Position numbers and translations under genes: made by a program
Notes under the pieces: model-generated
The model's input: only the letters and a program-made list of their open reading frames with translations
Databases searched by the model: none
Told to the model about the DNA's origin: nothing
Part shown: in pieces, positions 17,624 through 51,835 of the stretch
Layout of the letters: every line of letters begins with the position of its first letter
Position numbering within the stretch: the stretch's first letter is position 1
IMG/VR virus record: IMGVR_UViG_3300034779_000011
Coordinates: 1 to 53,704 of that record
Reading direction: 5' to 3' (one strand)
Origin: a virus
Taxonomy: Duplodnaviria > Caudoviricetes
Length of the DNA stretch: 53,704 bases

Positions 17624-19008
17624 GCGGCCGCACGGTCCCGCGCCGCCTGGCCGCCGCCTTCATGGTGGCGCAGTGGGCGATGCAGCGCGAATGGCTGGAG
17701 GCGATGCGGCCCGTGGCCGAGCAGATCGGCGGGCGGGACCTGAGCGCGGCGCAGCTGCGCGAGGAGCTCCGCGCCGCGCTGGAGCCGTTCCGCAAGGACG
17801 CGGTGGCGGTCGAGTGGGGCCAGCCCGTCGACGGGGCGCCGCGCGCGAGCGTGCGGGGCGGCGTCGCGGTGCTCCGGATCGTCGGCCCGATGTTCCACTA
17901 CGCGGACGAGTTCACCGACGTTTGCGGCTGCACGGCGTACGACGCGCTTGCTCGCGATGTGGCGGCGGTGCGGGCCGCGTACCGCGCAGGTGTGGTGGGC
18001 GCGGCCGTGGGCTACTTCGACACGCCCGGCGGCGAGTTCGGCGGCTGCGGGGAGGCGGCGGACCTGGTCCGGTCCCTCGCGGCCGAGATGCCTACCGTGG
18101 CGTACGCGTCCGACCTGTGCTGCTCCGCCGGGTTCTGGCTCGCGAGCGCGTTCGGTGAGCGCGTGGGGGCGGACGCTTCCATGTGGGGCTCGCTGGGCGT
18201 GGTGAGCTCCTACGTCGACAGTTCCGAGCGAGACGCGAAGGCCGGGGTTCGCAGGTTCGAGATCGTCTCCTCGCAGAGCCCCGACAAGCGCGCCAACCCC
18301 GCAGAGGATGAAGGGCGCGCGCGGCACCAGGCGCTGGTGGACTCGCTGGCCGACGTCTTCATCGACCACGTCGCCCGCAACATGAACGTGCCGCGCGCCC
18401 GGGTGCTCTCGGACTTCGGCCGTGGGGGCGTCCTGGTCGGACAGCAGGCGGTCGCCGCGGGAATGATCGACCGGCTCGGCTCCTTCGAGGGGCTGATCGC
18501 GGAGCTTTCGGACAAGTACGGCCCCGGTTCCCGGGGCACGCCCGCCGCCGGCGGGTTCACCCTCTCCCAGGAGCGCACGATGCGCCAGGAGCCCATGTCC
18601 GGCAGCGAAGAGCAGCCGGGGCCCATCACCGCCGACTCGCTGCGCCAGGCCCACCCGCAGGCGGTGGCGGAGCTCGAGACGGCCGCCGCCGCGCGGGAGC
18701 GCGAGCGGATCCGCGCGGTTCTCGCCGAAGCGACCACCGAGGACGAGCGCGCCGCGGTGGCGCCGCTCATCGAGGACCCGCAGGCCACCGCCGGGGACGC
18801 GGCGCGCGCCATCCTCGCCGCCGCCCGCAAGGCAGGCTCGACGGCCGGTGCCAGGGCGAAGGCCTTCCACGACGCCGTGCGGGCGGACGAGGTCGCGCTG
18901 GACGCGCCCGCTCCCAACGCCGCCACCGCGGGGGCGTCCGCCACCGACGCCGCGCAGGTGCTGCAGATCCTGAACGCCGGCAAGCTGCCGGCGCCCTCGC
19001 CGAACTGA
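17620..19008 (+). CDS. S49 prohead protease with C-terminal scaffold
   Basis: DTPGG, CCSAGFWLAS, GSLGVV, AVAAGMID, ERERIRAV. Confidence 0.92.
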   Translation: MSGRTVPRRLAAAFMVAQWAMQREWLEAMRPVAEQIGGRDLSAAQLREELRAALEPFRKDAVAVEWGQPVDGAPRASVRGGVAVLRIVGPMFHYADEFTDVCGCTAYDALARDVAAVRAAYRAGVVGAAVGYFDTPGGEFGGCGEAADLVRSLAAEMPTVAYASDLCCSAGFWLASAFGERVGADASMWGSLGVVSSYVDSSERDAKAGVRRFEIVSSQSPDKRANPAEDEGRARHQALVDSLADVFIDHVARNMNVPRARVLSDFGRGGVLVGQQAVAAGMIDRLGSFEGLIAELSDKYGPGSRGTPAAGGFTLSQERTMRQEPMSGSEEQPGPITADSLRQAHPQAVAELETAAAARERERIRAVLAEATTEDERAAVAPLIEDPQATAGDAARAILAAARKAGSTAGARAKAFHDAVRADEVALDAPAPNAATAGASATDAAQVLQILNAGKLPAPSPN

Positions 19009-19766: not shown

Positions 19767-20825
19767 ATGGCCGACACGTACACCACCCGGGTGCTGATCG
19801 GGGTGGTCGAGAGCCGCGAAGGCGGCAAGCTCCAGACGTTCTTCCGCAATTTCTTCCCCTTCCGCGTGCAGAGCGACCGGGAGGAGATCCTCTTCGACGT
19901 GGTGGACAAGAAGAAGCGCCTGGCGCCCTTCGTCTCGCCGCTGGTCAAGGGCAAGATCATGGAGGCGTGGGGCTACGTGACCCGCGTCTTCAAGCCCGCG
20001 TACCTGAAGCCGAAGGGGGTCGTGCGGCCCACCGACGCGATCAAGCGCCTCGCGGGCGAGAAGCTGAACGGCGAGATGAGCATGGCGGAGCGCCGGAACA
20101 TCCACATCCGGAACCACCTGTTCGAGCAGGACGACGCCTGCGACAACCGCGAGGAGGTGATGTGCGCGGAGGCGCTGCGGCTCGGGCAAGTCACCGTTTC
20201 GGGAGACGGCTACCCCACCCAAGTGATCAGCTTCGGGCGCAACTCCGCGCACCGGATCGTCCTCTCCGGCGCCGACTTGTGGAGCGCGTCGACCGCCACG
20301 CCCAACGACGACCTGGAGGAGTGGGCGGAGCTGGTGCGCGACAACGGCGACGGCGCGGTGGTCACCGACTGGATCATGGGGACGCGCGCCTTCAAGGCGT
20401 ACAAGAACTGGCTCAAGGACAACGAGCCGGACCTGCTCAAGATCCTGCTCAACGCCCAGAACCGGGGCCAGACCACCTCGCTGCAGATGGGCCCGCAGGC
20501 GGCGCGCAAGATCGTCAACCAGGGAACGGTCGGTGAGTTCCAGTTCTGGACGTACAGCGACACCTACCAGGACGAGGACGGCGTCACGCAGCAGGTGTTC
20601 CCGAAGGAGGAGGTGCTGGGCGTCTCCATGGACGTGGAGGGCACCATCTGCTACGGCGCCATCATGGACGCCGACGCCGGGGAGAGCGGGCTCGCGGTGA
20701 TGGAGCGCTTCCCGAAGAACTGGAAGGAGGCTGACCCGTCGGCAGAGTACGTCATGACGCAGTCGGCCCCGCTCGCGGTGCCGCTGCGTCCCAACGCCAC
20801 CGTGAGCGCCGTGGTGCTGGCGTAA
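19767..20825 (+). CDS. Major capsid protein (lambda gpE family)
   Basis: RLAPFVSP, FKPAYLKPK, NREEVMCAEAL, YGAI, DPSAEYVMTQSAPL. Confidence 0.96.
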   Translation: MADTYTTRVLIGVVESREGGKLQTFFRNFFPFRVQSDREEILFDVVDKKKRLAPFVSPLVKGKIMEAWGYVTRVFKPAYLKPKGVVRPTDAIKRLAGEKLNGEMSMAERRNIHIRNHLFEQDDACDNREEVMCAEALRLGQVTVSGDGYPTQVISFGRNSAHRIVLSGADLWSASTATPNDDLEEWAELVRDNGDGAVVTDWIMGTRAFKAYKNWLKDNEPDLLKILLNAQNRGQTTSLQMGPQAARKIVNQGTVGEFQFWTYSDTYQDEDGVTQQVFPKEEVLGVSMDVEGTICYGAIMDADAGESGLAVMERFPKNWKEADPSAEYVMTQSAPLAVPLRPNATVSAVVLA

Positions 20826-29331: not shown

Positions 29332-29753
29332 AGCGCGCCGAGAACTGGGACGTGCGCCTGCACCACTGGGCCGCCGGCCGCGTGGGCCGGCGCTTCGCAT
29401 GGGGCCGCACCGACTGCGCCTCGCTGGTGCGCCAGGCGGCACGGGTGATGTACGGCCAGGAGGTGTTCGCCTCGGTGCCGCGCTGGGCGAGCGCCCGGCA
29501 GGCCGTGGAGGCCATGCGCGTGAGCGGCGGAGTCCGCCCGAGCCTCCAGCGCCTCCAGGCCTGGTGCCTGCCGCTCGGGTTCGCGCAGAGCGGGGACGTC
29601 GCCGTAGGCCCGGAGCAGGGCGGCGAGGCGCAGACGGCCGTGGTCGTGGACGGCCGGGCGCTGGTCTCGACGCGGGCCGAGGGGGTGCGTCTGGTTCCCC
29701 TGTCGGAGCTGAGCGCGGGGGTGCTGCTCTGGAGGCTGCCGAGCCATGAGTAG
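29328..29753 (+). CDS. NlpC/P60-like tail tip protein
   Basis: FAWGRTDCA, AQSGDV. Confidence 0.8.
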   Translation: MKRAENWDVRLHHWAAGRVGRRFAWGRTDCASLVRQAARVMYGQEVFASVPRWASARQAVEAMRVSGGVRPSLQRLQAWCLPLGFAQSGDVAVGPEQGGEAQTAVVVDGRALVSTRAEGVRLVPLSELSAGVLLWRLPSHE

Positions 29754-32580
29754 CCCGCTCGGGAAGATCGTCGCCGGGGCGGCATTGATCGGGGTGCAGT
29801 TCATCCCCGGGGTGGGGCAGATGGTGTCGGCGGCGGCGTTCTCGCTGGGCGCGAGCTTCGTCGCCTCCGGGGTCGGCGGGCTCCTCGCGGGACGCCTTCG
29901 CGGCGGGCAGGAAGGCTTCCAGACCAGCGCCACCAGCGCCCAGGCGGACGTGCCGGTCATCTACGGCACCGTGAAGATGGCCCCCAACATCGTGGATATC
30001 CGGGTCGATCCCAACAACAACAAGATCCTCGCGATCGTCGGCGTGCTAGGGGTGGGCTCGGATGACGGCAACGGCATCCAGGCCATCGACGAGATCTACC
30101 TGGACGACAAGCTGGCCGTCTCGGCCTCCGGCGTGGTGCAGAGCGCCTTCGTCGGCAACAGCACGATCGACGGGGCGACCGCGCGGGTGCGGGTCGCGAA
30201 GTACATGGGCACGTTCGGCCAGAGCGTGGACGCAGAAATGTCGGCCCGCTTCTCCTCCACCGGCTGGCCCTCGTCCTCCCGCGGGCGAGGCATGGCATAC
30301 GTGCGGCTGCTCCTTACCTACGACAACGAGAAGTTTCCCGGGGGAATCCCGCGCATCGCCTGCGTGGTCCGGGGGCGGCGCGTCTTCGACCCGCGCGACT
30401 CCACGTGGAAGCACGCGGAGAACCCCGCGCTCTGCGTGCGTGACTACCTGCTGTCCACGCAGGTGGGGCTCGGGGCATCGACGGCCGAGATCGACGAAGC
30501 GTCCTTCGCCGCCGCCGCCAACTACTGCGACGAGACCCTCTCCGTGCCCGGCGGGGTGCAGAAGCGCTTCACCTGCAACGCGATCCTCGCCACCGAGCGC
30601 GCGCGCGGCCAGAACCTGAACGACCTGCTCTCCTCCTGCCGGGGGCAGCTGGTCTATCAGGGCGGCGTCTACCGGCTCTTCATCCGGCGGCCCACCACGC
30701 CCACGGCGTTCGCGCTCACCGAGGACAACATCGTCGGCAACTGGAGCTTCCGCCGGGCGGGGCTCAAGGAGACGGCGAACACGGTGCGCGTGGCGTACGT
30801 CGACTCCGGCAAGAACTACGTGGTGGAGACGGCCACGTGGCCCGAACCGGGCGCGGCGAATCCCTATCGCACCGCCGATAACGGCTTCGCCAACGAGGTG
30901 GACGTCGACCTGCCCTGCACCACCAACCGCTACGCCGCGCTGCAGATCGCCGAGGTGCTGCTCAAGGAGAGCCGGAACGATCTCTTCGTGAGCCTGACGG
31001 CCAAGGAGGCGGCGCTGCAGCTGCAGGTGGGCGACGTGGTGCCGGTCACCCACTCCACCCCCGGCTGGACCGCCAAGCCGTTCTGGGTGCTGGGGCTCTC
31101 CATCCGGCCGGACCACCTGGTGGAAGTGGTGCTCCAGGCCTACAGCGCCGACACGTACACGCTCTCGACTCCCACCACGACGGCAACGCTGCCGGGCGGG
31201 AGCCTGCCGGATCCGCAGAGCGTGGCGGCGCCGTCGGGCCTGGTGCTGACGGCCGACGCCACAACGGCGCTCGAGGTGCAGGACGGCATCCGCGTGCCGC
31301 GGATCCGGGTGCAGTGGACCGCCTCGCCGGAGCCGCACCTGCTGCGCTACGAGATTGAGATCAAGCCGACGGCTGGAGGGGTGTTCAACCTCTGCAACTA
31401 CGCGGGGCCGCAGGACACCGAGGCGTTCGTCCTCTCCGAGGTGAGCGCGGGAGTGGGCTACGATGTACGCGTGCGGGCCGTCTCGATGGTGTACGTCGCC
31501 TCCAACTGGATCAGCGGCTCCGTCACGCCCAGCACGACGGTCAGCAACTACGGCGGCAACATCAACAACGTCCCGGCGCCTACGGTGCAGGGGGAGGCGC
31601 GGACGGGCCGTCGGGGCGTGGGCAACGGGGCGCGTAACGTCCTGGTCAACGGCAGCGCGCAGCGCGACGCGGAGGGCCTCACCGAACTCACCGCCGTCAA
31701 TTCACTCACCATCGACACGGCAACGTTCTACCGTGGGGACCGCAGCTTCAAACTCTCGCATGCGTCCGCGGCGGACGAAGCGTGGGCCTTCCCGCAGTAC
31801 GCGGTGGCGGACGGCGATTACGTGACGGTGCGCGGCAGGATCAAGACCACGGCCCTACCGCCCGGCGAGGCTGGCGAGGGCGCGGCGCTCAACACGGATA
31901 TCGTCTCGGGCGTGTCCTCCCTCACGGTGCTGGAGACACGCAGCGCCGGGGTGTTCTCGTTCGTCGCGGACGTAGGCTTGCCTGCCGATGGCGTTGCCCG
32001 AGACTTCACCGAGGTTTGGGCGTACTTCCAGGTGAACGGCGCCGGTGTGCTGCGGCTCGCCATTCACCTGGGCTACAACGGCGCCCAGTCGGGGAGTGCC
32101 TGGTTCGATGATATCGAGGTGATCGTCGAGAGCCGGTACGCGACCGAGGGGGCCACCCGCTCCAAGGCGGGTCTCGCCGCGGGGACGGGACAGCTCGCGA
32201 GCCCGGCCAAGGGGCTGCCGTACTTCCAGGGCAACCGCGGCAGCGCGATCAAGGGCTACAGCGGGAACCTGATCTCGACCACCAACAACGGCGACGGCAC
32301 CGCCACCGTCTCGCTCGCCGCGCACACGCACCAGTTCGGCCAGATGGACGTCAACTATAACTCCGGAACCGTGACGCTCTCCGGCGTCGCGGCGCTGCAG
32401 GAGTGGTTCGTCTACACCGACGACCTGAACCTGGCCGGAGGCGCCGCCACCTACCTCGCCACGCAGTCGGAAGAGACGGCGAAGGCGGGCAACGGGCGGG
32501 TGTTCGTGGGCATCGCCGGGGTTCCCGCGTCCGGGGCGACGACTCCCGGCACCCCCGGCGGCGGAACCACGCTTCGCTGA
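29746..32580 (+). CDS. Tail tip / host-specificity protein (gpJ-like)
   Basis: VPVIYG, GRRVFDPR, NPALCVRDYL, AANYCDE, FN3-like and carbohydrate-binding-like C-terminal domains. Confidence 0.92.
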   Translation: MSSPLGKIVAGAALIGVQFIPGVGQMVSAAAFSLGASFVASGVGGLLAGRLRGGQEGFQTSATSAQADVPVIYGTVKMAPNIVDIRVDPNNNKILAIVGVLGVGSDDGNGIQAIDEIYLDDKLAVSASGVVQSAFVGNSTIDGATARVRVAKYMGTFGQSVDAEMSARFSSTGWPSSSRGRGMAYVRLLLTYDNEKFPGGIPRIACVVRGRRVFDPRDSTWKHAENPALCVRDYLLSTQVGLGASTAEIDEASFAAAANYCDETLSVPGGVQKRFTCNAILATERARGQNLNDLLSSCRGQLVYQGGVYRLFIRRPTTPTAFALTEDNIVGNWSFRRAGLKETANTVRVAYVDSGKNYVVETATWPEPGAANPYRTADNGFANEVDVDLPCTTNRYAALQIAEVLLKESRNDLFVSLTAKEAALQLQVGDVVPVTHSTPGWTAKPFWVLGLSIRPDHLVEVVLQAYSADTYTLSTPTTTATLPGGSLPDPQSVAAPSGLVLTADATTALEVQDGIRVPRIRVQWTASPEPHLLRYEIEIKPTAGGVFNLCNYAGPQDTEAFVLSEVSAGVGYDVRVRAVSMVYVASNWISGSVTPSTTVSNYGGNINNVPAPTVQGEARTGRRGVGNGARNVLVNGSAQRDAEGLTELTAVNSLTIDTATFYRGDRSFKLSHASAADEAWAFPQYAVADGDYVTVRGRIKTTALPPGEAGEGAALNTDIVSGVSSLTVLETRSAGVFSFVADVGLPADGVARDFTEVWAYFQVNGAGVLRLAIHLGYNGAQSGSAWFDDIEVIVESRYATEGATRSKAGLAAGTGQLASPAKGLPYFQGNRGSAIKGYSGNLISTTNNGDGTATVSLAAHTHQFGQMDVNYNSGTVTLSGVAALQEWFVYTDDLNLAGGAATYLATQSEETAKAGNGRVFVGIAGVPASGATTPGTPGGGTTLR

Positions 32581-36897: not shown

Positions 36898-37500
36898 ATG
36901 CTCGCCCCCGCTGCCTGGAACCTGATGCTGGACGCGCTGGCCGCCGTCGCGCAGTACGTCTCCCTCCACAGCGCCTACAGCGCCACCGGCGCCAACGAGA
37001 TCTCCGGAGGCTCGCCCGCGTACGCTCGCAAGGCGAAGACGTGGAACGCGGCTTCCGAGTCCGCCTTGGACGACAGCAACACGGCCACCTTCGACGTGCC
37101 GGGCGGCGGGACGCAGGTCGCCTTCCTGGGCCTCTGGAGCGCCGCGAGCGCCGGCACCTTCTACGGGATGATCCCGCTCGGCAGCACCGGCGGCTACAAG
37201 CCGTTTACCGTCACGACGGCGAGCGACACGGTCAACTGCCCGTCCCACGGATTCTCGGACGGGGAGCGGGTCGTGTTCCTGGGCGGGGCGCCGGCCGGTC
37301 TCAGCGAAGGCGTCATCTACTTCGTCCGCGACTCCGCCACGGACTCCTTCAAGGTGGCCGCCACGTCGGGAGGCGTCGCGATCGACCTCACCGGCCAGGC
37401 GTCGGCCGGCATGGCGGTGACCCGGATCGTACCCGAGACCTTCAACGGCCAGGGCACGCACCAGGTCACCGACACCGACATCGCCCGGGTGTTCGGATGA
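36898..37500 (+). CDS. Virion accessory / tail fibre-associated protein
   Basis: YVSLHS...ANEISGGSPAYARKA...FDVP...GLWSAASAGTFYG. Confidence 0.75.
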   Translation: MLAPAAWNLMLDALAAVAQYVSLHSAYSATGANEISGGSPAYARKAKTWNAASESALDDSNTATFDVPGGGTQVAFLGLWSAASAGTFYGMIPLGSTGGYKPFTVTTASDTVNCPSHGFSDGERVVFLGGAPAGLSEGVIYFVRDSATDSFKVAATSGGVAIDLTGQASAGMAVTRIVPETFNGQGTHQVTDTDIARVFG

Positions 37501-38309
37501 TCGAGGTCTTCCGCAACAACGCCGCCGGCACCCTGGCGTCGGGGATCACCTCCGGGGCGACGTCGCTCACGCTGCAGGCCGGGAACGGCGCGAAGTTCCC
37601 AAGCCCTGGCGCCAGCGAGTTCTTCTTCGCGACCCTGGAGGAGGGCTCGACCGTGGAGGTGGTCAAGGTGACCGCGCGCTCCTCCGACACCTTCACCGTC
37701 ACACGTGCCCAACAGGGATCGAGCGGAAGCGCGTTCGGGAGCGGGGCGAAGTTCGAACAGCGCCTCACCCGCAGCTCCGTGGAGGGGGCGATCTACGGAG
37801 CGCTCCACCAGCGCTTCGCGAGCGGTGAGTACTACCACTCCTACTCGCCGGGACTCAGCAGCGCGAACGTGTCGGCGAACACGCTGCGGGCGGCGCCGTT
37901 CTACGTCCCGGTCCGCACGGCGTTCGACCGGATCGCCTGCGAGGTTGCGACCTTCGCCGCGAGCTCGGTGGTGCGCCTGGGCGTGTACGCGGACGGGGGC
38001 GACGGCAAGCCCGGCGCCCTCCTCTTCGAGGCCGGCACGGTGGACAGCACCAGCAACGGTGTCAAGGCGATCACCATTAGCCAGACGCTGGACCCCGGCG
38101 TCTACTGGCTGGCCGCGCAGCCGGAGGGCGCGACGGTGGGTCTCAGGAACTTCACCGCCCTCGGCGCCTTCCTGGCCCGGAACGCCACCTTCGGGACCAC
38201 GACGCACAACGGGTACAGCGTCGCGAGCGCGGCCGGATCCCTGCCGTCCTCGTTCGGCGCGGGCTCGCTTACCAACGCCACCCCCGTGGTGGCCCTCCGG
38301 GCCGCGTGA
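37497..38309 (+). CDS. Tail fibre / receptor-binding-like protein
   Basis: NNAAGTLASGI...EVVKVTAR...TVTRAQQG; RLGVY...LDPGVYWLA. Confidence 0.75.
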   Translation: MIEVFRNNAAGTLASGITSGATSLTLQAGNGAKFPSPGASEFFFATLEEGSTVEVVKVTARSSDTFTVTRAQQGSSGSAFGSGAKFEQRLTRSSVEGAIYGALHQRFASGEYYHSYSPGLSSANVSANTLRAAPFYVPVRTAFDRIACEVATFAASSVVRLGVYADGGDGKPGALLFEAGTVDSTSNGVKAITISQTLDPGVYWLAAQPEGATVGLRNFTALGAFLARNATFGTTTHNGYSVASAAGSLPSSFGAGSLTNATPVVALRAA

Positions 38310-39851: not shown

Positions 39852-40060
39852 CCAGCAGCCGACCGTAGGATGCGGCGCGACAATCGCGCGCAGTCAGTTA
39901 GGACAGCACGGCCGCCGGCACCTCCCGGCGGCTGTGCGATTGAGCAGGGGGGCAGAAGGCGGCGAGCCCCCGGCCTGAACGGAACCGCGGGTTCGTAATC
40001 CCGGGGGCACGAGCCCCCCCCCCCCCCTCCCCGCCCCCCTCGGAGATGAAAATTCATCTC

Positions 40061-40116
40061 TTGACAATGTGATGAGCCTTCACCATACTAACAACCGCGA
40101 GGCCGATCGCGGTTGT
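40061..40116 (+). promoter_or_regulatory. Strong sigma70 promoter with downstream palindrome
   Basis: TTGACA-17 bp-CATACT; ACAACCGCGA-N6-TCGCGGTTGT at 40091-40116. Confidence 0.75.
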
Positions 40117-40144
40117 GTGTCGCCTACGGAGGGGGATTGTTGTC

Positions 40145-40720
40145 ATGGAAGCGGAAGCGAACGCGCGGCGGCGGGGCCAGAGGTCCAGGGTGAGAGCGCC
40201 CGCACCTGTGCGGGCCGCGCCTGCGGGCGGCGCCATGACGGCCGGCGAGTTGAAGATGCGGCTCTCTCTGGTGGTCAAGGCGCGTGTGGGCAACCCCGAG
40301 TCGCAGGAGGAGCGCGCCGCGGCGGTGGGGCTCGGCCGGTCGACGCTTCGCAACTACGAGAGCGCAACGCTGCCCGTGCCGCCCATGCTGGCTCGCCTGG
40401 CCCGCGCCCTGGACCGAGTGGAAGACCTGGAGGCGGAGAACCGGAACCTGAAGGTCCGGCTGGCCATCGCAGAACAGGCGGGCGGGGTCCGCACCCAGGC
40501 GCGGCAGGCGCGTCCGGCACGCCTCGAAGCCAGGTATCCGCTGCGCAAGGTCGTCTCCGCCCAGGTGTGGAAGGAGTCGTGGACGCTGCTCCTCGATTGC
40601 GACCACGTGGAATATTCCGACCTCGCGCCGAGTCAGCTCCGGGCGGTCGCGCGGGGGGAGGTGCCTCGCGCGCCCAAAACATGCCGGTGCCGCTCCTGCC
40701 ACCATGCGGCGCAGAGTTGA
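40145..40720 (+). CDS. XRE-type HTH protein with coiled coil and C-terminal Cys/His domain
   Basis: SQEERAAAVGLGRSTLRNYE; CDH...CRCRSC. Confidence 0.75.
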   Translation: MEAEANARRRGQRSRVRAPAPVRAAPAGGAMTAGELKMRLSLVVKARVGNPESQEERAAAVGLGRSTLRNYESATLPVPPMLARLARALDRVEDLEAENRNLKVRLAIAEQAGGVRTQARQARPARLEARYPLRKVVSAQVWKESWTLLLDCDHVEYSDLAPSQLRAVARGEVPRAPKTCRCRSCHHAAQS

Positions 40721-40757: not shown

Positions 40758-41003
40758 TCAGAGGTGGAGCAGGACGTAGAGGACGCCCGGCCTCACCTGC
40801 AGCCTGCGCGCGAGGTGGACCAGGCGGCGTCGCTCCGTCCAGCGGACGGCGAGCCAGTGGGGATCGGCGTACGGGCGGCCCGGCCGGGCCTGCGGGTCTT
40901 GGGACGGGTGGCGAGGTGCGGGTTCGGGGGAGGCCAGCGGATGAGGTGTGTGCGCCCGCATGGTGAGGAGCCCGGCCGGCTTAATTCTCTTGGGACCGCT
41001 CAT
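40758..41003 (-). CDS. Possible small hypothetical protein
   Basis: ATG with G-rich RBS; weak support. Confidence 0.3.
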   Translation of the reverse strand: MSGPKRIKPAGLLTMRAHTPHPLASPEPAPRHPSQDPQARPGRPYADPHWLAVRWTERRRLVHLARRLQVRPGVLYVLLHL

Positions 41004-41076
41004 GCCGCCCCTCGGGTTGCCGAGGCCCTGCTGTGCGGGTGAAGAGCCCCACACAGCGGGGAACAGCCCCCGGTTC

Positions 41077-41487
41077 TTACGGAGGCGGCGTAATATTCCG
41101 CGTTCGAGGGTGGGAAAAGCGTTCGCGTGCCTCCGCTTCTGTGATCCTTCCCAGGGAGGGCGGCGGCGCGAATGCTCCAGGTGATACGTGGATGGTAAAG
41201 TAGTAACTGACCCCCGGCCTGAAATCCAAGGTGATGCTCGCCGGCCCCGCCGTTCCGATGGCATGTGTGCCAGGGGGTACGCTAAAAGTAAAGTACGTTC
41301 CCGATCTGAGAAAGCCGATCCGAAACCCGTCGAGAAGCACGGGACTGACAGCACCGTCGAGCTTTTGAAATACGGTGATGGTCGCGGAGGACTCTGGGGC
41401 GAGAGGCCGCGGGAACTTTTCAGTCACCCCGGCAGCCGGTGTGCACGAGGTGCAGAACAGTAGGATTACCACGTAACGCATCATCAT
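41077..41487 (-). CDS. Lipoprotein, DUF2846-like
   Basis: MMMRYVVILLFCTSC lipobox; VLLDGFRIGFLRSGTYFTFSVPPGTH. Confidence 0.8.
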   Translation of the reverse strand: MMMRYVVILLFCTSCTPAAGVTEKFPRPLAPESSATITVFQKLDGAVSPVLLDGFRIGFLRSGTYFTFSVPPGTHAIGTAGPASITLDFRPGVSYYFTIHVSPGAFAPPPSLGRITEAEARERFSHPRTRNITPPP

Positions 41488-41526
41488 TTGAGGGCCTTTC
41501 CTTTCAACCGCGGGGAGGGCAAGAAC

Positions 41527-41555
41527 TTCCCTCGTAACCTCTGTACTTATATACT
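41527..41555 (+). promoter_or_regulatory. Putative promoter of the peptide gene
   Basis: TTCCCT-17 bp-TATACT in an AT-rich divergent intergenic region. Confidence 0.5.
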
Positions 41556-41634
41556 TCCGGCCGGCGGCACACCCGATCCGCCGCATTTCTCTCGTTTCCC
41601 GCCCACCTTCACCGACAACCTGGAGAGTACCCCG

Positions 41635-41859
41635 ATGCGGACCCATCTCCGCCTGATGCTCGCGTGCATCGGGCTCAGCCTCAGTGCAGCCGTCTTCGCG
41701 GCCTGTTCCGATCAGGGGCCCGTTGAGCCCCAGCTCGCGCCGCCCGCGCCCGCCGCGGAGAAGCGCGACACCACGCCGACGTTCACGCCGCTCTCGGAAC
41801 CGATCCAGACGGACTCGACGTGCCGCAACGGCACGCTCGGCGGCGGGGGGCGCTGCTAG
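41635..41859 (+). CDS. 74-aa lipo-propeptide, candidate signalling peptide precursor
   Basis: GGAG RBS; signal peptide with FAAC lipobox (Cys24); Pro/Thr linker; C-terminal CRNGTLGGGGRC. Confidence 0.8.
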   Translation: MRTHLRLMLACIGLSLSAAVFAACSDQGPVEPQLAPPAPAAEKRDTTPTFTPLSEPIQTDSTCRNGTLGGGGRC

Positions 41860-43223
41860 TCCGTCGCTAGAACCCCCTCCACTTCGCGCGCAAATAGTTC
41901 GTCGGGTACAGCCTCTTTCCGCACTGCACCTATGGCCGCGTGTGTCGAGATTGCGTTCATGACGCGCTCGGCGTACGCGGCCACACGCGTCTCGCCGTGT
42001 AGAGAAGCCAAGCCCCCGGCAAGTCCGGCAGCGAGTGTCGCCCGCTTCCATTGCCCGGTCGAGTGCGCGGCGTAGGCCAGATGCAAGAACGAGCGGGCGC
42101 GCTGGGGGCTGTCCGCTGATTCATGCGCCGCCCTCCACGCCGCAGACCACCAAGCCTCGTAAGACGCCCGGTCTCCCGCCCCAGCAGCCGCCCGGACGAA
42201 GTTAGCAAGCACCAGCATGCGCAGGCCAGGCTCGGCATCGGCCACGGCCGAGAGTACGGCACCGAAAAGACGTTGCGCGGCGACGAACCGCCCTTCCTCC
42301 ACCCAAAGGTAGCCGAGATCGTGGAGAAGGTGCAGGCGGTGCGGGTCGCCAGCAGGGTAGAGCCGTAGCGCGAGCCTTACCAAACGGCGCGCGCGCCGCC
42401 CGCTTGGTGCTTCGATTGCGAGCGACGCTAAGCCGTGAACTGCGTATGCTGCTTCGGCTCGAAATCCACACCGGAGCGCGACATGCGCCGCCCTCGCGAA
42501 GCACCGGCCGGCCTTAGGGAACGCACCGCGGAGCTTGTGAACCTTTCCCAATCCCGTCCACCCAAGCGATACCGCCGAAAAGTCCCCGAGGTGCCGCCCG
42601 GATCTGATCGCGAGCGCAAACCAGATTGAGGCGGCGCGGTAACGTTCGCTCTCCCGGGCGTCGCGCCCTGCCGACCAAGCACTCCTGGCGGGCGAATGCA
42701 ACCAGGTGCGGAACTGCGGCGGCGGGCACGAGGCGAGCGCGTGGTGGACCGCCGTGCGCAATCGCAGGAGGGCCGGAAGGTCTCGTACAACCCAGCGTGC
42801 ACGCGGATCAAACTCCGAGAGAAGGTCGACCACGGACCTATCAGTTGGATTGACGGTCGCCGGGAAGACAACGGCGAGAGAGAATAGGTCACACGCAGCA
42901 CGCTTGAAGCGGTGGTCGCGGAACAGTTCCCGGCCGACGCAGTTCGCGACCGTGAATCGAAGCAGTTCGCCCCCCAATCCGCTGCGAACCCTCCAGCGCG
43001 CGGCCTCGCCGCGGCGCGGACGGACGGGCTCCAGCACATTCCCGCCGGTTGCGCCGTGCTCCAGCCCGACACGGAAGAGCAGCCGCAAGGCGCGAAGGTC
43101 GCTCAACGCCGCCGGACCTGCGCCGAGGCCGGAGTCGACGTCGCGCAGGAACAGGATGGTGCGGGCGACGTCATAGACGAGGGCGCGCTGCCTATCCGTC
43201 AGTTCCTCTTGTGGGCCTGTCAT
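41856..43223 (-). CDS. Cytoplasmic TPR-repeat protein, candidate peptide receptor
   Basis: GLGKVHKLRGAFPKAGRCF, HDLGYLWVEEGRFVAAQRLF, LHLAYAAHSTGQWKRA; no signal peptide or HTH seen. Confidence 0.85.
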   Translation of the reverse strand: MTGPQEELTDRQRALVYDVARTILFLRDVDSGLGAGPAALSDLRALRLLFRVGLEHGATGGNVLEPVRPRRGEAARWRVRSGLGGELLRFTVANCVGRELFRDHRFKRAACDLFSLAVVFPATVNPTDRSVVDLLSEFDPRARWVVRDLPALLRLRTAVHHALASCPPPQFRTWLHSPARSAWSAGRDARESERYRAASIWFALAIRSGRHLGDFSAVSLGWTGLGKVHKLRGAFPKAGRCFARAAHVALRCGFRAEAAYAVHGLASLAIEAPSGRRARRLVRLALRLYPAGDPHRLHLLHDLGYLWVEEGRFVAAQRLFGAVLSAVADAEPGLRMLVLANFVRAAAGAGDRASYEAWWSAAWRAAHESADSPQRARSFLHLAYAAHSTGQWKRATLAAGLAGGLASLHGETRVAAYAERVMNAISTHAAIGAVRKEAVPDELFAREVEGVLATD

Positions 43224-43629
43224 TGTTCAAAACTGTCCTGCGTCTGTTGTCAATGGGGTGGAACTCCACCTCACGCAAGCCGCGCCGAAGCGCGATCCGG
43301 TAGGCTTCCGCGAGCTGTCGGCGCTCGCTCCACCCATGCTCACGTGCAAGTCGTGCAACCTCTTCGAGGACCTTGAATCCACGGGAGTCCTGAAGCGCTT
43401 CGGGGTCCCACGCATCCAAGCTGTCCAATGCGTCCGCGGGTAGCCCGAACGCCTGCGCTATCAGTTGCCGCGTGCGCGGGCCAGGCACCTTTGCACCCGC
43501 CTCGATCTTACTGACGTAGGATTGGCCTCCCGACAGCCGGACGCGCCGCGCGAGTTCGGATTGGCTCAACCCTGCCCGCTCCCGCAACTCCCGAATCCGC
43601 TCACCCAGCCCCTTCGGCGCCTCAGTCAT
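43192..43629 (-). CDS. CI-like XRE repressor without S24 peptidase domain
   Basis: LGERIRELRERAGLSQSELARRV...QSYVSKIEAG; divergent from the early operon. Confidence 0.9.
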   Translation of the reverse strand: MTEAPKGLGERIRELRERAGLSQSELARRVRLSGGQSYVSKIEAGAKVPGPRTRQLIAQAFGLPADALDSLDAWDPEALQDSRGFKVLEEVARLAREHGWSERRQLAEAYRIALRRGLREVEFHPIDNRRRTVLNNDRPTRGTDG

Positions 43630-43644
43630 TGGGCTCCCCCATAG

Positions 43645-43733
43645 ATGCACTAGGTACTTGACTTCATGTACCCAGTGCATTAGTATGGTAGTCACCGGTC
43701 GGGCAGCGGTCAAGAACCGGGCGCGAACCGGGC
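43645..43733. promoter_or_regulatory. Lysis-lysogeny switch: overlapping face-to-face promoters and operator
   Basis: Plus strand TTGACT(43658)-17-TAGTAT(43681); minus strand TTGACC(43713)-17-TACCAT(43690); inverted repeat ATGCACTaGGTAC-N10-GTACCcAGTGCAT; GAACCGGGC twice. Confidence 0.8.
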
Positions 43734-43763
43734 AAACTAGGGGCGCAAGATAGGACTCAGGCG

Positions 43764-44033
43764 ATGGCGAGCAAGCTTCCTGACGTGGAGAAGGTAACAG
43801 AGTTCGAGCGGCAGGCCGGCGGCTTCCGCACTGATCGGACTCTGGAGCTGCTGGGCCTCAAGGACGACAGCAGCCTGCGCAGGCTCCGCCGCGCGGGCGA
43901 GCTCAAGCGACGGGGCCGCCTCTACACGTTCGCGAGCGTGCGCAAGCTCAACGAGCAGCGCGTGAAGGACGGGCTCCTCGAACCGGAGTACCTGGCGCTG
44001 TTCTCGGGTGATCCCGCGGAGGTGGTCGTATGA
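43764..44033 (+). CDS. Cro/Xis-like HTH protein
   Basis: TLELLGLKDDSSLRRLRRAGEL; first gene opposite the repressor. Confidence 0.75.
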   Translation: MASKLPDVEKVTEFERQAGGFRTDRTLELLGLKDDSSLRRLRRAGELKRRGRLYTFASVRKLNEQRVKDGLLEPEYLALFSGDPAEVVV

Positions 44034-47000: not shown

Positions 47001-47170
47001 CCGATGCGCCACCCTCACCACGGCAACCAGTCCCGCCGGGCCCGCAAGCGGCACGGCCACCGCCGGAGCGGCTACGGACGCTGGATTCCTAAGCCGCCGT
47101 ACGCTTCGCCGTGGCGTAACCTCCGGTGGCTCACCGAGGCGCCCGTACTCTCGTTCCCCAAGGAAAGCCG

Positions 47171-49264
47171 ATGGCAGCCAAGGTAGGCGTCCACCTGACC
47201 GATAAAGAGAACGCCGCGTTCCGCGCGAGCGGTCTCTCGCTCAAGGCGTGGCTCCGGTCTCAGGCGCCGGAGGGCGCCTCTCTCGGGGTCGCCGAGATCC
47301 CCCTCCACTGGATCAGCGGCCCGTACCGCTTCCAGGAGGGCCCTTTCGCCGGCCAGCGGATGAATCCCCGCCAGCGCTTCCCCGAGCTGGAGCAGGCGAG
47401 GCTCAGGAACTCCTTGCGTGCGAACGGCCAGCAGGAGCCGCTCCTGGTCCACGTCTCGGCGGCCGACCTGGCGGAGTACGGCCCGCCATTCCGGTGGTCG
47501 GAAGAGTCCCGCCCGCACGTCGAGATCGTGGACGGCGAGCGCCGCTGGCGCGAGGCTCGAGCGGCCGGGCTCGCGACGCTCCGCTGCGAGGTCCGCACCT
47601 GGACGGACGAGGAGGCGCTCCGCTACGCGCGCGTCACCGGCACCGAAAAACTCCTGCTCTCCGACGTGGAGCAGCTCCGCGCGCACGCCGTCGAGGTGGC
47701 GCTCGGCGAGGCGGCCGGCAAGACCCGCGAGGAGATCGCCGCGGCCCTCGGCTACGACTCCCCGTCCACGCTCTCCAACGACCTGGGGCTGCTCAAGCTC
47801 CCCGACTACTGGCTGGCGGGCGTCGAGGCCGGCGACTGGAGCCGAACGGCGCTCAAGAACTACGTGAAGCCGTTCCTCTCCAAGCTCAAGAACGATGCAG
47901 CGAGGGCGCGCCTGTTCGGGCGCGCGGCGGCGGCGTGCGAGGAAGCGGCGATCACCGAGCCCAAGGGCCTCTCGGACCGACAGGTGAAGGAGATCGTTCT
48001 CGGGGTGGCGCTCGAGGTCTCCTGGCCGCTCGACTGCGCCGCGGACCTGCCGGCGGACTCCCCTATGCTGCCCGCGGGCGAGCACGACGCGGAGTGCGGC
48101 TGCGGCGCCCCGGACACGCTGGTCGGGCACCGGCGCTGTTACAACCCGACGTGGTACGAGACCAAGCTCGAGGAGATGCGCCGGCGGGGCCTCGCTGTCG
48201 ACACCCACGCGGATCTGGCGGCGGTCTTCCCCGAGGAGCGAGAGCGACAGGCAGCACTCGACCTGATCGGGCGTACGTCGCTGCCAGTCAGTGGAAGCGA
48301 GGAGGTGCAAGCCGACGAGTCCGGCATGGGCCCGCGCCCGCCAGGCGAGCCACGGGGCGCCGAGGGCCGTTGGTCACCCGAGCCGTGCACGACACCCTGT
48401 CGGTCCTGCGGCTCGACTTTGTGGGGGCTGGCGGACCTCACCGTCGGCGTCTGCGAAGACTGCACGCCAGAACACTTCCGGACGCCGCCGGCGGGGTCGG
48501 GTGGTTCCGTCGGGGACCGCGACGGCCAGGAGTGGGGCGGCACCGATCCGACCGAGGCCCACGGGCCGCTCCTCGTCGCCGACCCCAGCCCGATGCCGGA
48601 GGAGCCGTCCACCGAAGGTTCCACGACGTCCACCGTGTCGTCCGGTTCCACCGCGGACCCTTCGATGGCGTCTGGTGCGACCTCCGCCACGTCGTCACCT
48701 CCGCAAGCGGGTGGGTCGTCTTCGGCCCCCGCTTCGCGAAGCGCCCCCGGCCCGGCTGAGGCCGCAGTCGCACCGTCCGGCATCGCCCGCGCCATCGTGC
48801 GCGGCACGGCCACCCTGGGGGAGATTCGCGCCTGGTTCCATCCCGAAGCGCCTGCGACCCCCGCGCACGTGGTCGTCCTGAACGAGGCGCTTCGGACGAC
48901 GCTTCGGCTGCTGCAGGAGGTCGGGGCGCCTGCGTCGGCGGTCCCGGGGAGCGGGTGGGAAGGGCGGCACGGCGCACAGGACCCACCCGCGCAACCGGCC
49001 AAGAATCCGCCGGCGCGCCGGGACGCCGCCGCGGCCGAGGTCGACCGGCTTCCGGCGAACATCCGCGATGCGTTTGCGCACGCGCAGCAGCCGGACATGA
49101 GCGCGGAGGACAAGGCGCACGCCCTCCGGGTACTCTCGCGGCATTGCGAACTCGGCTGGGCGTTCCTAAACGCGAACCAGGAGGGCGGGGCGGACCTGTC
49201 GGCGCTGGCGGACGCACTGGACCAGGCCGATGTGCTGCTGCGCGGCGAGGTGGCCGGTGCCTGA
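47171..49264 (+). CDS. ParB/Srx-domain protein with long low-complexity C-terminus
   Basis: NPRQRF, LRNSLRANGQQEPLLV, IVDGERRWR, HTH TREEIAAALG...LLKLP. Confidence 0.88.
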   Translation: MAAKVGVHLTDKENAAFRASGLSLKAWLRSQAPEGASLGVAEIPLHWISGPYRFQEGPFAGQRMNPRQRFPELEQARLRNSLRANGQQEPLLVHVSAADLAEYGPPFRWSEESRPHVEIVDGERRWREARAAGLATLRCEVRTWTDEEALRYARVTGTEKLLLSDVEQLRAHAVEVALGEAAGKTREEIAAALGYDSPSTLSNDLGLLKLPDYWLAGVEAGDWSRTALKNYVKPFLSKLKNDAARARLFGRAAAACEEAAITEPKGLSDRQVKEIVLGVALEVSWPLDCAADLPADSPMLPAGEHDAECGCGAPDTLVGHRRCYNPTWYETKLEEMRRRGLAVDTHADLAAVFPEERERQAALDLIGRTSLPVSGSEEVQADESGMGPRPPGEPRGAEGRWSPEPCTTPCRSCGSTLWGLADLTVGVCEDCTPEHFRTPPAGSGGSVGDRDGQEWGGTDPTEAHGPLLVADPSPMPEEPSTEGSTTSTVSSGSTADPSMASGATSATSSPPQAGGSSSAPASRSAPGPAEAAVAPSGIARAIVRGTATLGEIRAWFHPEAPATPAHVVVLNEALRTTLRLLQEVGAPASAVPGSGWEGRHGAQDPPAQPAKNPPARRDAAAAEVDRLPANIRDAFAHAQQPDMSAEDKAHALRVLSRHCELGWAFLNANQEGGADLSALADALDQADVLLRGEVAGA

Positions 49265-50120: not shown

Positions 50121-51311
50121 GTGCCGAAGAAGAAACAGCCGAAGCTCTGGAGCTACGAAGCGGGGTCGCGCGGGTCGCGCGTCTGGGTGGGGGAGCGCGT
50201 GCCGGGCGGCGTCCTCACCTGCCGCTGGTGGGACCCCGTGCGGGGGCAGAACCACTTTCAAAGCTTGGGACACCGGGACAAGGCGAAGGCCATGGAGCAC
50301 GCCGACGCCCTCTCGCGGCTTCATCGCACGAACAAGGAGGCGGGGGCGCGGGGCCTCCTCACCCTGGCCGCGCTGTTCGGCCTCTACGAGGGCGCCGGCG
50401 AGCCGGCCCGCAAGAAGAGGCGCGGCGCCCAGGACGACGCGCGGCGGATGGATATCTGGCAGGCGTACCTAGGGGACGCATTCGTCGTCCAGGACCTGAC
50501 GCCCGGCATCCTCAAGCGGTTCGTCGCGGACCGCAAGGCGGGGCGGGTTGCGGTGCAGGGGCACGCCCTCGGCGCCGCTAGCGACACGACCGCCGGCAAG
50601 GACGTGGGCTTCTTACAGGCGGTGCTGCGGTGGGCCGGGCCCGAAGGCCATTTAGACGACGCGCCAGTTCGGCCGTCGGTCATGCAGTTCGCCCTGCCGC
50701 GTAACGTGAACCCGCGGCGGCCGGTGGCCACGTACGACCGCTTCCTCGCCCTCCGGCCGCACTGCAGCCGCCACGGCAGCGGCCGGTTCGGGGAGTTCGT
50801 GGACCTGGTGGAGGCGCTTGGCTGGCGGGCGGGGGCGATCTGCGCTCTGGACTACGCCGACCTGGATTTGCAGGCGCTGCCGCAGGCACCGCTCGGACGG
50901 GTCCTGAAGCGGGCGGAGACCGACAAGCGCGGCGTGGAGATGTGGATACCACTGCCTGCGGATGCGAGGTCCGCCATCGACCGGCTGCTGCGCAAACGCG
51001 GCGCGGTGGGGCGCGGACCCCTCTTCCCGCGGCCGAAGGACCCCACCCGCTGTTGGACGGTCGAGTACGCGATCAAGCAGCTGCGCCACGCGGAGAGGGA
51101 CGCTGGCCTGCAGCCGCAGGCGCGGGGCGCCTTCCACCCGTACCGGCGCGCATGGGTGAGGGCACGGAAGGACTGGCCGCGCTCGGACGTGGCGGCCGCG
51201 GGCGGGTGGCAGTCGGTGCGGACGCTGGAGATCTACGACGGGGCGGACGAGCACACGCTGCTCGCGGTGGTGAACGAGCCGCGCAAGCTGCGCGACGCGG
51301 GGGCGGCGTGA
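50121..51311 (+). CDS. int: Tyrosine integrase
   Basis: GWRAGAI (R), TDK (K), FHPYRR (HxxR), GGW, EIYD (Y); next to tRNA. Confidence 0.93.
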   Translation: MPKKKQPKLWSYEAGSRGSRVWVGERVPGGVLTCRWWDPVRGQNHFQSLGHRDKAKAMEHADALSRLHRTNKEAGARGLLTLAALFGLYEGAGEPARKKRRGAQDDARRMDIWQAYLGDAFVVQDLTPGILKRFVADRKAGRVAVQGHALGAASDTTAGKDVGFLQAVLRWAGPEGHLDDAPVRPSVMQFALPRNVNPRRPVATYDRFLALRPHCSRHGSGRFGEFVDLVEALGWRAGAICALDYADLDLQALPQAPLGRVLKRAETDKRGVEMWIPLPADARSAIDRLLRKRGAVGRGPLFPRPKDPTRCWTVEYAIKQLRHAERDAGLQPQARGAFHPYRRAWVRARKDWPRSDVAAAGGWQSVRTLEIYDGADEHTLLAVVNEPRKLRDAGAA

Positions 51312-51591: not shown

Positions 51592-51660
51592 CGGCAGGAG
51601 CGGAGACGGGAACGCCCCACGGCGCGCAAGCACATGCGGGGCGAGGGGATAGGGAGGGAG

Positions 51661-51731
51661 AGGCGCCGCCCGGATTCGAACCGGGGGTCGAGGATTTGCA
51701 GTCCTCTGCCTTACCACTTGGCCACGGCGCC
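51661..51731 (-). tRNA. tRNA-Cys (GCA), probable attachment site
   Basis: GGCGCCGTGGCCAAGTGGTAAGGCAGAGGACTGCAAATCCTC...GGTTCGAATCCGGGCGGCGCCT. Confidence 0.97.
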
Positions 51732-51762
51732 GTACCTGCTTCGACCCCGCGGCGGGCACGAG

Positions 51763-51835
51763 AGCGGGCAACCGGGCTCGAACCGGCGACCTCAACCTTG
51801 GCAAGGTTGCGCTCTACCAACTGAGCTATGCCCGC
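51763..51835 (-). tRNA. tRNA-Gly (GCC)
   Basis: GCGGGCATAGCTCAGTTGGTAGAGCGCAACCTTGCCAAGGTTG...GGTTCGAGCCCGGTTGCCCGCT. Confidence 0.97.

Follow-up and report, generated by a model that had tools for sequence, protein, structure and literature searches.

A repressor, a tetratricopeptide-repeat protein and a small prolipoprotein in the immunity region of a soil Gemmatimonadota prophage: a candidate peptide-signalling module

We describe here three adjacent genes from a prophage of a soil bacterium of the phylum Gemmatimonadota, which encode an XRE-type regulator, a tetratricopeptide-repeat (TPR) protein and a prolipoprotein of 74 amino acids (aa), and which may together form a peptide-signalling module. 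They lie in a stretch of 53,704 nucleotides (nt) with a GC content of ~70%, positions 1 to 53,704 of IMG/VR record IMGVR_UViG_3300034779_000011; "the window" denotes this whole stretch throughout. Judged from its gene content, the window is a lambda-like prophage, since Pfam recognizes terminase, capsid, tail and integrase genes and tRNA genes are present as well. The module occupies the immunity region, with the tail genes on one side and the rightward early genes on the other. Related metagenome-assembled genomes (MAGs) are named Longimicrobium, and the genus name of the host rests on those relatives. Bacteria of this phylum possess a Gram-negative envelope.

The genes for the XRE and TPR proteins overlap by 32 nt at 43192-43223, exactly as a preliminary description of this DNA had reported, and all coordinates of that description hold. 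The TPR gene converges on the open reading frame (ORF) of the 74-aa prolipoprotein, and we could likewise read the junction claimed for the two, with both stop codons lying within a single CTAG at 41856-41859. The ribosome-binding site that had been assigned to this ORF is present as GGAGAG (Table 1). Genes were called by ORF rules and by rules on the GC content of third codon positions (GC3), both applied here. Within the module, GC3 amounts to 0.70 in the XRE gene, 0.73 in the TPR gene and a host-like 0.91 in the peptide ORF, whose first and second codon positions reach 0.65 and 0.61; in a genome of ~70% GC, a GC3 of 0.91 indicates that the 74-aa frame fits coding.

The XRE protein is matched by HTH_31 (1.5e-13) and HTH_3 (9e-11) of Pfam and by transcriptional regulator and repressor families of PHROGs. 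Its helix-turn-helix (HTH) domain occupies residues ~8-71 and is followed by a C-terminal extension of 75 residues without family match, and a GGGGGAG motif stands just 5' of its ATG. Between positions 39800 and 44400 we detected four sigma-70-like sites, compared with 0.2 expected. The XRE gene is divergent from the early operon, and a palindrome is situated between face-to-face promoter-like sites; this palindrome is unique in the window (two matches, both of them its own arms, versus 0.02 expected). Such an arrangement is that of a CI-like XRE gene, and the protein, whose assignment to the XRE type is solid, is probably the repressor at the CI position of the prophage. The 89-aa product of the first rightward gene shows a weak winged-helix match (Pfam AbiEi_4, E 0.0033, below the curated cut-off). 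We also noted a match of the XRE protein to the phage RstR repressor family, which has an E of 3e-6 and lies far under the curated cut-off.

For the 455-aa protein, the preliminary description had proposed a stand-alone TPR gene. The Pfam scan of the protein itself does not bear this out (best match TPR_19, E 0.09), whereas its family and its predicted structure do: among 51 aligned family members, 45 are matched by TPR_12 and 27 by TPR_MalT, and the AlphaFold2 model built from the family alignment (predicted local distance difference test score 88.1, predicted template modelling score 0.71) consists of a mixed alpha/beta N-domain (residues 1-165) and twelve paired helices, i.e. six TPR pairs (residues 178-426). 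The top Foldseek matches of the model, at E ~1e-5, are LGN/Pins and kinesin light chain (KLC), TPRs solved with a peptide in the groove, and the best 60 matches of a PDB profile search comprise consensus TPR, LGN/Pins, KLC and OGT. No HTH family of Pfam or NCBIfam matches the protein, nor does it have a match in PADLOC, PHROGs or NCBIfam as a whole. Its N-domain is subfamily-specific; structural neighbours found by an Atlas search reach template modelling scores of at most 0.35, and NCBIfam yields none. No signal peptide is visible at the N-terminus by reading, and the protein is therefore taken as cytoplasmic. While a word-index search returned one relative, an exhaustive HMMER search returned 911 representatives at E<=1e-3, of which 336 reached E<=1e-10, the majority being 420-460 aa long and aligned over TPR residues ~175-430. 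Co-folding of the TPR protein (family alignment) with lipoprotein residues 24-74 gave a score of 0.00 in both runs, in which the controls were not folded, and is counted neither for nor against binding. A defence function of the TPR protein was considered and rejected, PADLOC having returned no match for it or for P0001.

The 74-aa product has the makings of a bacterial lipoprotein, with a basic n-region (R2 and R6), the hydrophobic core LMLACIGLSLSAAVFAA as h-region and a lipobox Cys within the first ~35 residues. The lipobox FAAC, in which Cys24 is the predicted lipidated residue, and the Pro/Thr-rich spacer that follows it had both been noted in the preliminary description and are evident from the translation. 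The protein ends in CRNGTLGGGGRC; this tail, in which two cysteines enclose R-N-G-T-L-G-G-G-G-R, represents a variant form of the motif R-x-G-x-hydrophobic-G-G/S-G of a family of similar small proteins.

This family became apparent from the relatives of the TPR protein. Of 71 Longimicrobiaceae genomes searched, 70 contain such relatives, and a single genome can have as many as 21 matches at E<=1e-40. The genome that carries the window (7.5 Mb in 285 contigs; hereafter the own genome) holds 21 full-length paralogues with E <= 8e-58. The preliminary description had suggested checking whether TPR homologues neighbour small lipobox ORFs with Gly-rich C-termini, and we found that they do. We scanned both strands of the 700 nt downstream of each TPR gene for lipobox ORFs of 20-140 aa, the lipobox test being a regular expression that approximates the PROSITE rule from recall. 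In the own genome, 16 of the 21 paralogues are accompanied by such an ORF, which in every case is convergent and has its stop at a distance of -50 to +74 nt from that of the TPR gene; the stops overlap in four of these 16, including the pair of the window. A 17th paralogue has a convergent lipobox ORF of ~150 aa, above the limit of 140 aa, so that 17 of 21 are paired in total, compared with 12 (0.5%) of 2260 other long high-GC3 genes put through the same scan, only one of these 12 matches having a G-x-G tail; paralogues and orthologues share kinship, and the pairing counts given here and below are thus of non-independent events.

Outside the own genome, a 201-genome sample of the phylum has the ORF at 13 of 15 loci. 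L011, which is among the 13, belongs to an unpublished genome, and our tallies take in two unpublished genomes (G097 and G218). Four of the 13 come from other families of the class and are only distantly homologous (TPR protein E ~1e-31 to 1e-33), and their peptide tails are of other kinds, again repeated or Cys-bracketed. We furthermore collected 80 loci from named MAGs, whose titles without exception read Longimicrobium, Longimicrobiaceae, Gemmatimonadales or Gemmatimonadota/Gemmatimonadetes. The ORF is present at 34 of 73 of them, loci with less than 300 nt of downstream sequence having been left out; 30 of the 34 are credible ones within 150 nt and four lie at 152-236 nt. In a further set, for which the same 300-nt limit was applied, it is present at 8 of 28 loci, a set that is dominated by an orthologue group without peptide gene and whose genomes overlap those of the 73 loci. 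The sister family has it at two of five loci, and it is also found at a metagenome locus (L104). Metagenome contigs searched with a further alignment yielded no phage copy, only two distant loci of the chromosomal type. The TPR gene and its lipobox ORF constitute, in these genome comparisons, a host-wide chromosomal gene family, of which the prophage carries one divergent copy. On contig C215 of the own genome (5588-10484), we observed three tandem TPR paralogues on one strand, two of which have their own stop-overlapping convergent lipopeptide gene.

From 70 convergent ORFs we kept 67 distinct small proteins, after spurious ones (L057 and the second matches at L012 and L015) had been dropped. 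GC3 is the highest of the three codon positions in 66 of the 67 (mean GC 0.64, 0.64 and 0.84), and the mature parts are 24-101 residues long (median 49). A G-[SGTAP]-G motif occurs within the last six residues of 52 peptides, in 39 with exactly one residue after it. In most cases a hydrophobic residue (I, M, L, V or F) precedes G-x-G. Among the 62 peptides with such a motif, Arg is the most frequent residue at the sixth place before it (11 peptides) and the second most frequent at the fifth (10 peptides). Repetition of the tail within a precursor is detected in eight of the 67 by a strict 6-mer test, and two or three tail copies can be made out by eye in several peptides of the own genome, among whose paralogues the tails vary. 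Within orthologue groups, the majority fraction is 0.89 for the signal peptide, 0.84 / 0.74 for the last seven residues and 0.53 / 0.45 for the middle; the ratio of non-synonymous to synonymous polymorphism (pN/pS) is 0.53 in a seven-member group. As a further observation, the TPR gene on contig C179 of the own genome (15928-17340, minus strand), which is the 17th paired paralogue mentioned above, faces a convergent precursor of ~150 aa with six G-x-x-G-S-G-N copies separated by Thr/Ser-rich spacers, which looks like a polyprotein for several peptides.

Cysteines in the mature parts number none in 43 peptides and exactly two in 24, and never an odd count, as disulfide-forming exported proteins would show. 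Of the 24 peptides with two Cys, 17 have the pair ahead of the tail and two have it behind; in another two (the window and locus L017) the tail is bracketed by the pair, and the remaining three have no G-x-G. The bracketing pairs of the window and L017 enclose 10 residues each, and the tail at a further locus, L136, is bracketed too; the Cys-bracketed tail emphasized in the preliminary description therefore recurs at two other loci. The host genome has three matches to signal peptidase II (PF01252) and five to SBP_bac_5, the Opp-type binding protein.

That HTH and TPR reside on separate proteins, another point of the preliminary description, is borne out by the chromosomal paralogues. A same-strand gene for an AraC-type regulator of ~280-310 aa (HTH_18, 3.5e-17 and 1.4e-14) follows seven of the 21, and conversely seven of the nine such AraC genes of the own genome adjoin a TPR gene; the N-terminal half of the AraC-type protein has no Pfam match. 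At six of these seven loci, the AraC gene is separated from the TPR gene by the convergent peptide gene. An HTH protein of ~130 aa (weak HTH_31 match) is encoded within 3 kb of eight of the 21 paralogues. A phmmer search of the own genome for the XRE of the window gave two matches, one of them the XRE itself, and only the prophage copy has this XRE gene upstream. Locus L136, from another genus of the family, encodes the only other TPR protein that matches the window subfamily model over its full length (30% identity from residue 87), its N-domain being likewise of that subfamily; a search of 401 genomes of the phylum with the window-type model gave no further full-length match. At L136, the TPR gene shares 40 nt with an HTH-like ORF of 160 aa (weak, HTH_37 E 0.0034), and the lipobox ORF that converges on it (94 aa) ends in a Cys-bracketed R-G-V-L-F-G-G-G. 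BLASTP detected no similarity between the XRE of the window and the HTH-like protein of L136, and homology of the two partners is thus unsupported.

Table 1. Features of the module, of the adjoining switch region and of the prophage that carries them (positions in the window)
Feature	Position	Strand	Remarks
Ribosome-binding site of the lipobox ORF	41622-41627	+	GGAGAG, 7 nt before the ATG of the 74-aa ORF
Lipobox ORF	41635-41859	+	74 aa; ATG at 41635, TAG at 41857-41859
Predicted lipoprotein signal peptide, residues 1-24	41635-41706	+	Lipobox FAAC, Cys24 predicted lipidated +1 residue; passes the lipobox expression
C-terminal 12 residues, predicted mature signal	41821-41856	+	CRNGTLGGGGRC; family tail bracketed by two Cys and two Arg
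TPR gene	41856-43223	-	455 aa; ATG at 43223, stop at 41856-41858
XRE gene	43192-43629	-	145 aa; ATG at 43629, stop at 43192-43194
Palindrome, candidate XRE operator	43645-43680		17+17 nt, 88% complementary; overlaps the rightward promoter-like site
Promoter-like site toward the rightward early genes	43658-43686	+	TTGACT-17-TAGTAT
Promoter-like site for the XRE-TPR pair	43685-43713	-	TTGACC-17-TACCAT
First rightward gene, candidate Cro/excisionase-like product	43764-44033	+	89 aa, GC3 0.87
gpA-type large terminase	13705-15687		Pfam, 2.9e-79 and 6.6e-64
S49 head protease	17620-19005		Pfam
E-type major capsid protein	19767-20822		Pfam, 5.7e-60
Tail protein	29746-32577		Pfam
Tail fibre	37041-38306		PHROGs; last of the tail genes added by PHROGs
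Integrase	50121-51308		Pfam
tRNA-Cys and tRNA-Gly	51660-51835

Close linkage in a fixed geometry, an export signal, a C-terminal tail that is conserved, repeated and diverse, a cytoplasmic TPR protein of the peptide-binding type and a separate transcription factor together correspond to the logic of Rap-Phr and RRNPP systems, and we therefore rank signalling first among the possible explanations. Our tentative proposal, in which our confidence stays somewhat short of an even chance, is that the TPR protein and the 74-aa prolipoprotein are a receptor and signal pair, coupled here to a CI-type repressor. The preliminary description had likened the module to RRNPP and arbitrium systems; the pairing, the export signal and the separate HTH protein agree with this, whereas homology of the receptor to RRNPP receptors or AimR is not detectable and the family is not mainly one of phages.

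The proposed course of events is as follows. In a lysogen, the leftward promoter-like site at 43713-43685 would drive the XRE and TPR genes as a bicistron (their overlap is observed, co-transcription is what it suggests), and the XRE protein would bind the palindrome and thereby shut the rightward promoter. The 74-aa product would be exported by the Sec pathway, receive a lipid at Cys24 and undergo cleavage by signal peptidase II; its Pro/Thr linker would then be cut, probably at the Arg residues flanking NGTLGGGG, freeing a Gly-rich peptide of 8-12 residues, possibly closed into a ring by a Cys63-Cys74 disulfide. Accumulating with the density of phage-carrying cells, the peptide would re-enter them and bind the concave face of the TPR domain (178-426), upon which the N-domain would alter its hold on the separate XRE protein, so that repressor activity would follow the peptide level. 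As for the direction of the switch, our guess from Rap-Phr and arbitrium is that free TPR protein counteracts the repressor and that the peptide relieves this effect, in which case a high peptide level would favour lysogeny. In this scheme, binding, processing, release and uptake of the peptide are all conjectural steps. The chromosomal paralogues could follow the same scheme, XRE being replaced by a regulator of the AraC type or by a small HTH protein.

A wider picture, which we consider possible and hold with more reserve, is that a Longimicrobiaceae cell uses 10-20 private peptide channels in parallel, each composed of a cytoplasmic TPR receptor, a lipoprotein precursor with one to six G-S-G-tailed pheromones and a separate DNA-binding effector. 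This might then be the first RRNPP-like quorum sensing by cytoplasmic peptide receptors in a diderm phylum, evolved separately from the Bacillota family, from which the phage would have captured one channel, ringed it by a disulfide and coupled it to CI in an arbitrium-like manner.

Several results weigh against signalling. Rap, NprR, PlcR, PrgX and AimR chains are absent from the best 60 PDB profile matches, and the Foldseek matches listed for PDB and BFVD are generic TPRs with no RRNPP receptor among them. The N-domain alone matched none of the 70 other genomes of the family. No second copy of the XRE operator was found upstream of the peptide gene or elsewhere in the window, and the promoter of its own that the preliminary description had given to the 74-aa ORF could not be recovered either, as a sigma-70 scan of the plus strand from 41488 to 41634 returned no promoter-like site. 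The unequal GC3 values of the XRE gene, the TPR gene and the peptide ORF indicate that the three genes may differ in history. Other phage copies were found neither in IMG/VR, searched with the TPR protein and an alignment, nor among 50,697 phage records of INPHARED, searched by tblastn, and the earlier notion of a mainly phage system thus gives way to that of a chromosomal host family. The small ORF is missing at 39 of the 73 MAG loci. The best-conserved orthologue group (contig C7 type, 61-80% identity across MAGs; own-genome member C7:21274-23536, others approximately L024-L043, L047 and L087) never has a peptide gene and carries an AraC-type gene directly downstream, which implies that the TPR protein does not need a neighbouring peptide gene in order to work; the C7-type protein may be an "orphan" receptor. 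In a diderm host, moreover, a lipid-anchored peptide must be freed, leave the cell and re-cross two membranes, and no protease was identified for its release.

A regulated lipoprotein output would produce the same synteny, and this is the best-surviving of the other explanations. The TPR protein and its DNA-binding partner would then sense another cue and control the adjacent gene, whose product would act in the envelope, e.g. as a surface tag, an adhesin or an envelope modulator, or as a superinfection-exclusion factor in the prophage. The arrangement of the genes fits this equally well, and the peptide gene that lies between TPR and AraC genes diverges from the AraC gene, suggesting a common control region. 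The MAG loci without a small ORF agree with it as well, and so does the host-like GC3 of the peptide ORF in the window, which sets this ORF apart from the XRE and TPR genes. An output lipoprotein leaves unexplained, however, why the conserved unit should be the 7-9 residues of the extreme C-terminal tail, present in up to six copies per precursor, while the middle is poorly conserved and the tail variants are specific to each paralogue; the lack of an XRE operator before the peptide gene of the window speaks against such control, too. On balance we regard this explanation as rather unlikely.

The problem of crossing two membranes would disappear if the TPR protein bound the tail of the precursor before its export, so that the level of unexported precursor, reflecting Sec or lipoprotein traffic or just the strength of expression, would set the level of TPR protein free to act on the DNA-binding partner and re-import would not be required. 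Partner switching by pre-export binding is known from ExsC/ExsE. The TPR protein is cytoplasmic by reading, the C-terminal tail is the last part of the precursor to leave the ribosome, and convergent genes with overlapping stops would tie the expression of both products together. Such sensing hardly accounts, on the other hand, for ~20 parallel channels per genome, diversified tails and multi-copy precursors, and the even Cys count indicates selection on an exported, oxidised form. We therefore judge it improbable.

Less probable still, and in our opinion very unlikely, is that the three genes are unrelated neighbours, namely an XRE repressor, a TPR gene with an accessory role in the lysogen (defence or exclusion) and an independent moron lipoprotein. 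Llp, Cor and Bor are lipoproteins of the moron type, and a position such as this one, flanked by the tail fibre gene and the immunity region, is typical of morons, the DUF2846-like lipoprotein gene at 41077-41487 adjoining; GC3 is unequal among the three genes, and the trio occurs in no phage relative searched. The family-wide pairing in the same orientation and spacing (17 of 21, compared with 0.5% of controls) is difficult to reconcile with chance proximity, and the tail of the window peptide fits the family motif, PADLOC gives no match for the TPR protein and L136 independently repeats the layout of HTH protein, TPR protein and Cys-bracketed lipopeptide. That the 74-aa ORF is an o-spanin (Rz1-like) of a lysis cassette, as a weak PHROGs match (phrog_3198 "Rz-like spanin", E 0.0019, residues 6-42) and its character of a small Pro-rich lipoprotein with Cys could suggest, can practically be dismissed, because the match is partial and covers the signal peptide and a Pro-rich stretch only, the neighbouring ORFs scanned with Pfam and PHROGs include no i-spanin, holin or endolysin, the in-frame ORF just upstream lacks a membrane segment, and like ORFs adjoin chromosomal TPR genes outside prophages. 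It is this family-wide pairing and the missing lysis partner that make both of these last explanations unlikely, and peptide signalling remains the reading that we place first.

The surroundings of the module offer some observations in their own right. The region of 40-44 kb has the lowest GC content of the window (0.66-0.67). A second lipoprotein gene, the one at 41077-41487 on the minus strand, encodes 136 aa from an ATG at 41487, with a lipobox FCTSC, a low GC3 of 0.65 and a weak DUF2846 match (E 4.3e-6, 27.2 bits, cut-off 34.3); it is divergent from the 74-aa ORF with a spacer of 147 nt. At 40061-40720 (plus strand) lies an extra HTH gene, 201 aa as called (HTH_3, 7.5e-5), which is preceded by the best-matching promoter-like site found in this region (TTGACA-17-CATACT, 10 of 12 matches) and may thus give the prophage a second regulator, encoded after the tail genes and ahead of the immunity region. 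A run of ~14 C after a G/C-rich inverted repeat (40001-40028) precedes the promoter-like site at 40061 by ~35 nt and may be prone to slippage. Further away, a large protein with a C-5 cytosine DNA methylase domain (Pfam, 2.7e-23) is encoded at 1-2706 and a 712-aa protein with a ParB N-terminal domain (Pfam, 5.8e-7) at 47126-49264, both on the plus strand. In a biocrust metagenome run from a second study, a fraction of 0.83 of the words sampled from 41000-43800 is present, and the prophage region or a near-identical one may therefore occur in another sample; a search of sequencing runs with 41000-43800 gave no RNA run carrying the region, and the other DNA run that it gave is a soil metagenome, possibly the source.

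Compared with known systems, the proposed signalling pair is familiar in its logic and unfamiliar in its parts. Rap is an RRNPP member without an HTH, the other members being HTH-TPR fusions. The likeness to Rap-Phr of Bacillus comprises a cytoplasmic TPR receptor whose N-domain does not bind DNA and whose target is a separately encoded regulator, an adjacent small ORF with an export signal and a signal in its C-terminal part, and many diversified paralogues per genome, some of them on prophages and other mobile elements and some with multi-copy precursors. The differences are equally clear. Homology to the TPR family is not detectable beyond the TPR fold; the peptide gene is co-directional with the receptor gene in Rap-Phr, whereas here it is convergent with overlapping or nearly overlapping stops; all 67 peptides of our set carry a signal peptide of the signal peptidase II (SPII) type and the tail is G-S/G-G-x; and the partner is an XRE, AraC-type or small HTH regulator in a host of the phylum Gemmatimonadota instead of Spo0F or ComA. 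Rap-Phr cassettes are treated in PMC5199041. For two of the features seen here there is precedent in Firmicutes, as reported in PMC9765709: 211 of 2734 RRNPPA propeptides are predicted there to be lipobox (SPII) substrates, with an enrichment on mobile elements (59 cases, 19 of these in prophages), and several peptides can be encoded by one propeptide.

Arbitrium of SPbeta-like Bacillus phages is similar in that a peptide and TPR pair of a phage is found in the lysis-lysogeny region and the signal is C-terminal, according to PMC9232636 and PMC13220667. AimR has its own HTH and acts on aimX, whereas the module of the window has a separate CI-like XRE and no aimX-like element was identified in it; aimP lies on the same strand directly downstream of aimR, in contrast to the convergent ORF with the common CTAG described here. 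The TPR protein furthermore has no match to AimR at the level of sequence or fold, and the module is instead a captured member of a host chromosomal family. In Rgg-SHP and PrgX systems, a short peptide gene stands beside the receptor gene on the opposite strand, and enterococcal pheromones are linked to lipoprotein precursors. These receptors are HTH-TPR fusions, however, all of them in Bacillota, and the enterococcal pheromones derive from the lipoprotein signal peptide and not from the C-terminus. VqmA of vibriophage VP882 provides the example of a temperate phage of a Gram-negative host with a homologue of a host receptor at its lysis-lysogeny switch; its ligand is a small molecule of host origin and the phage itself has no gene for a signal, unlike the window with its receptor and candidate peptide. 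The XRE protein of the window also matches the first 118 of the 432 positions of NCBIfam NF053720, the NsdA family TPR-like regulatory protein of Actinomycetota (E 3.3e-6, 26.9 bits, cut-off 75), which implies that an XRE-type head and a TPR-like body exist as a single protein elsewhere. The TPR protein of the window does not match NF053720, and we know of no peptide partner for NsdA.

With RRNPP systems in general, the TPR family shares a cytoplasmic receptor of the TPR type and, adjacent to it, a gene for a predicted exported propeptide, while receptor homology, the HTH-TPR fusion and occurrence in Bacillota are lacking. The comparison suggests that the TPR and lipopeptide family resembles Rap-Phr and RRNPP in logic and is independent of RRNPP by homology; if signalling is its role, which we put forward with restrained confidence, it would work like an RRNPP system without being a member.

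Peptide signalling via cytoplasmic TPR receptors is described as a trait of Firmicutes/Bacillota and mobile elements in PMC10075063 and PMC9765709, and in the full-text literature, with most subscription journals beyond reach, we found work on RRNPP and arbitrium in Bacillota only and no such system for Gemmatimonadota or any diderm phylum. What is new here is the receptor family, the type of precursor, the gene geometry, the host phylum and the wiring to a separate repressor. Even if the signalling reading proved wrong, a three-part regulatory module in a poorly known and abundant soil lineage would still call for an explanation. If it is true, communication from phage to phage or about lysogen density would extend to Gram-negative soil bacteria, and the logic of peptide and TPR receptor would have had an independent origin. 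The family would then offer dozens of predicted orthogonal peptide-receptor pairs, which could be made directly.

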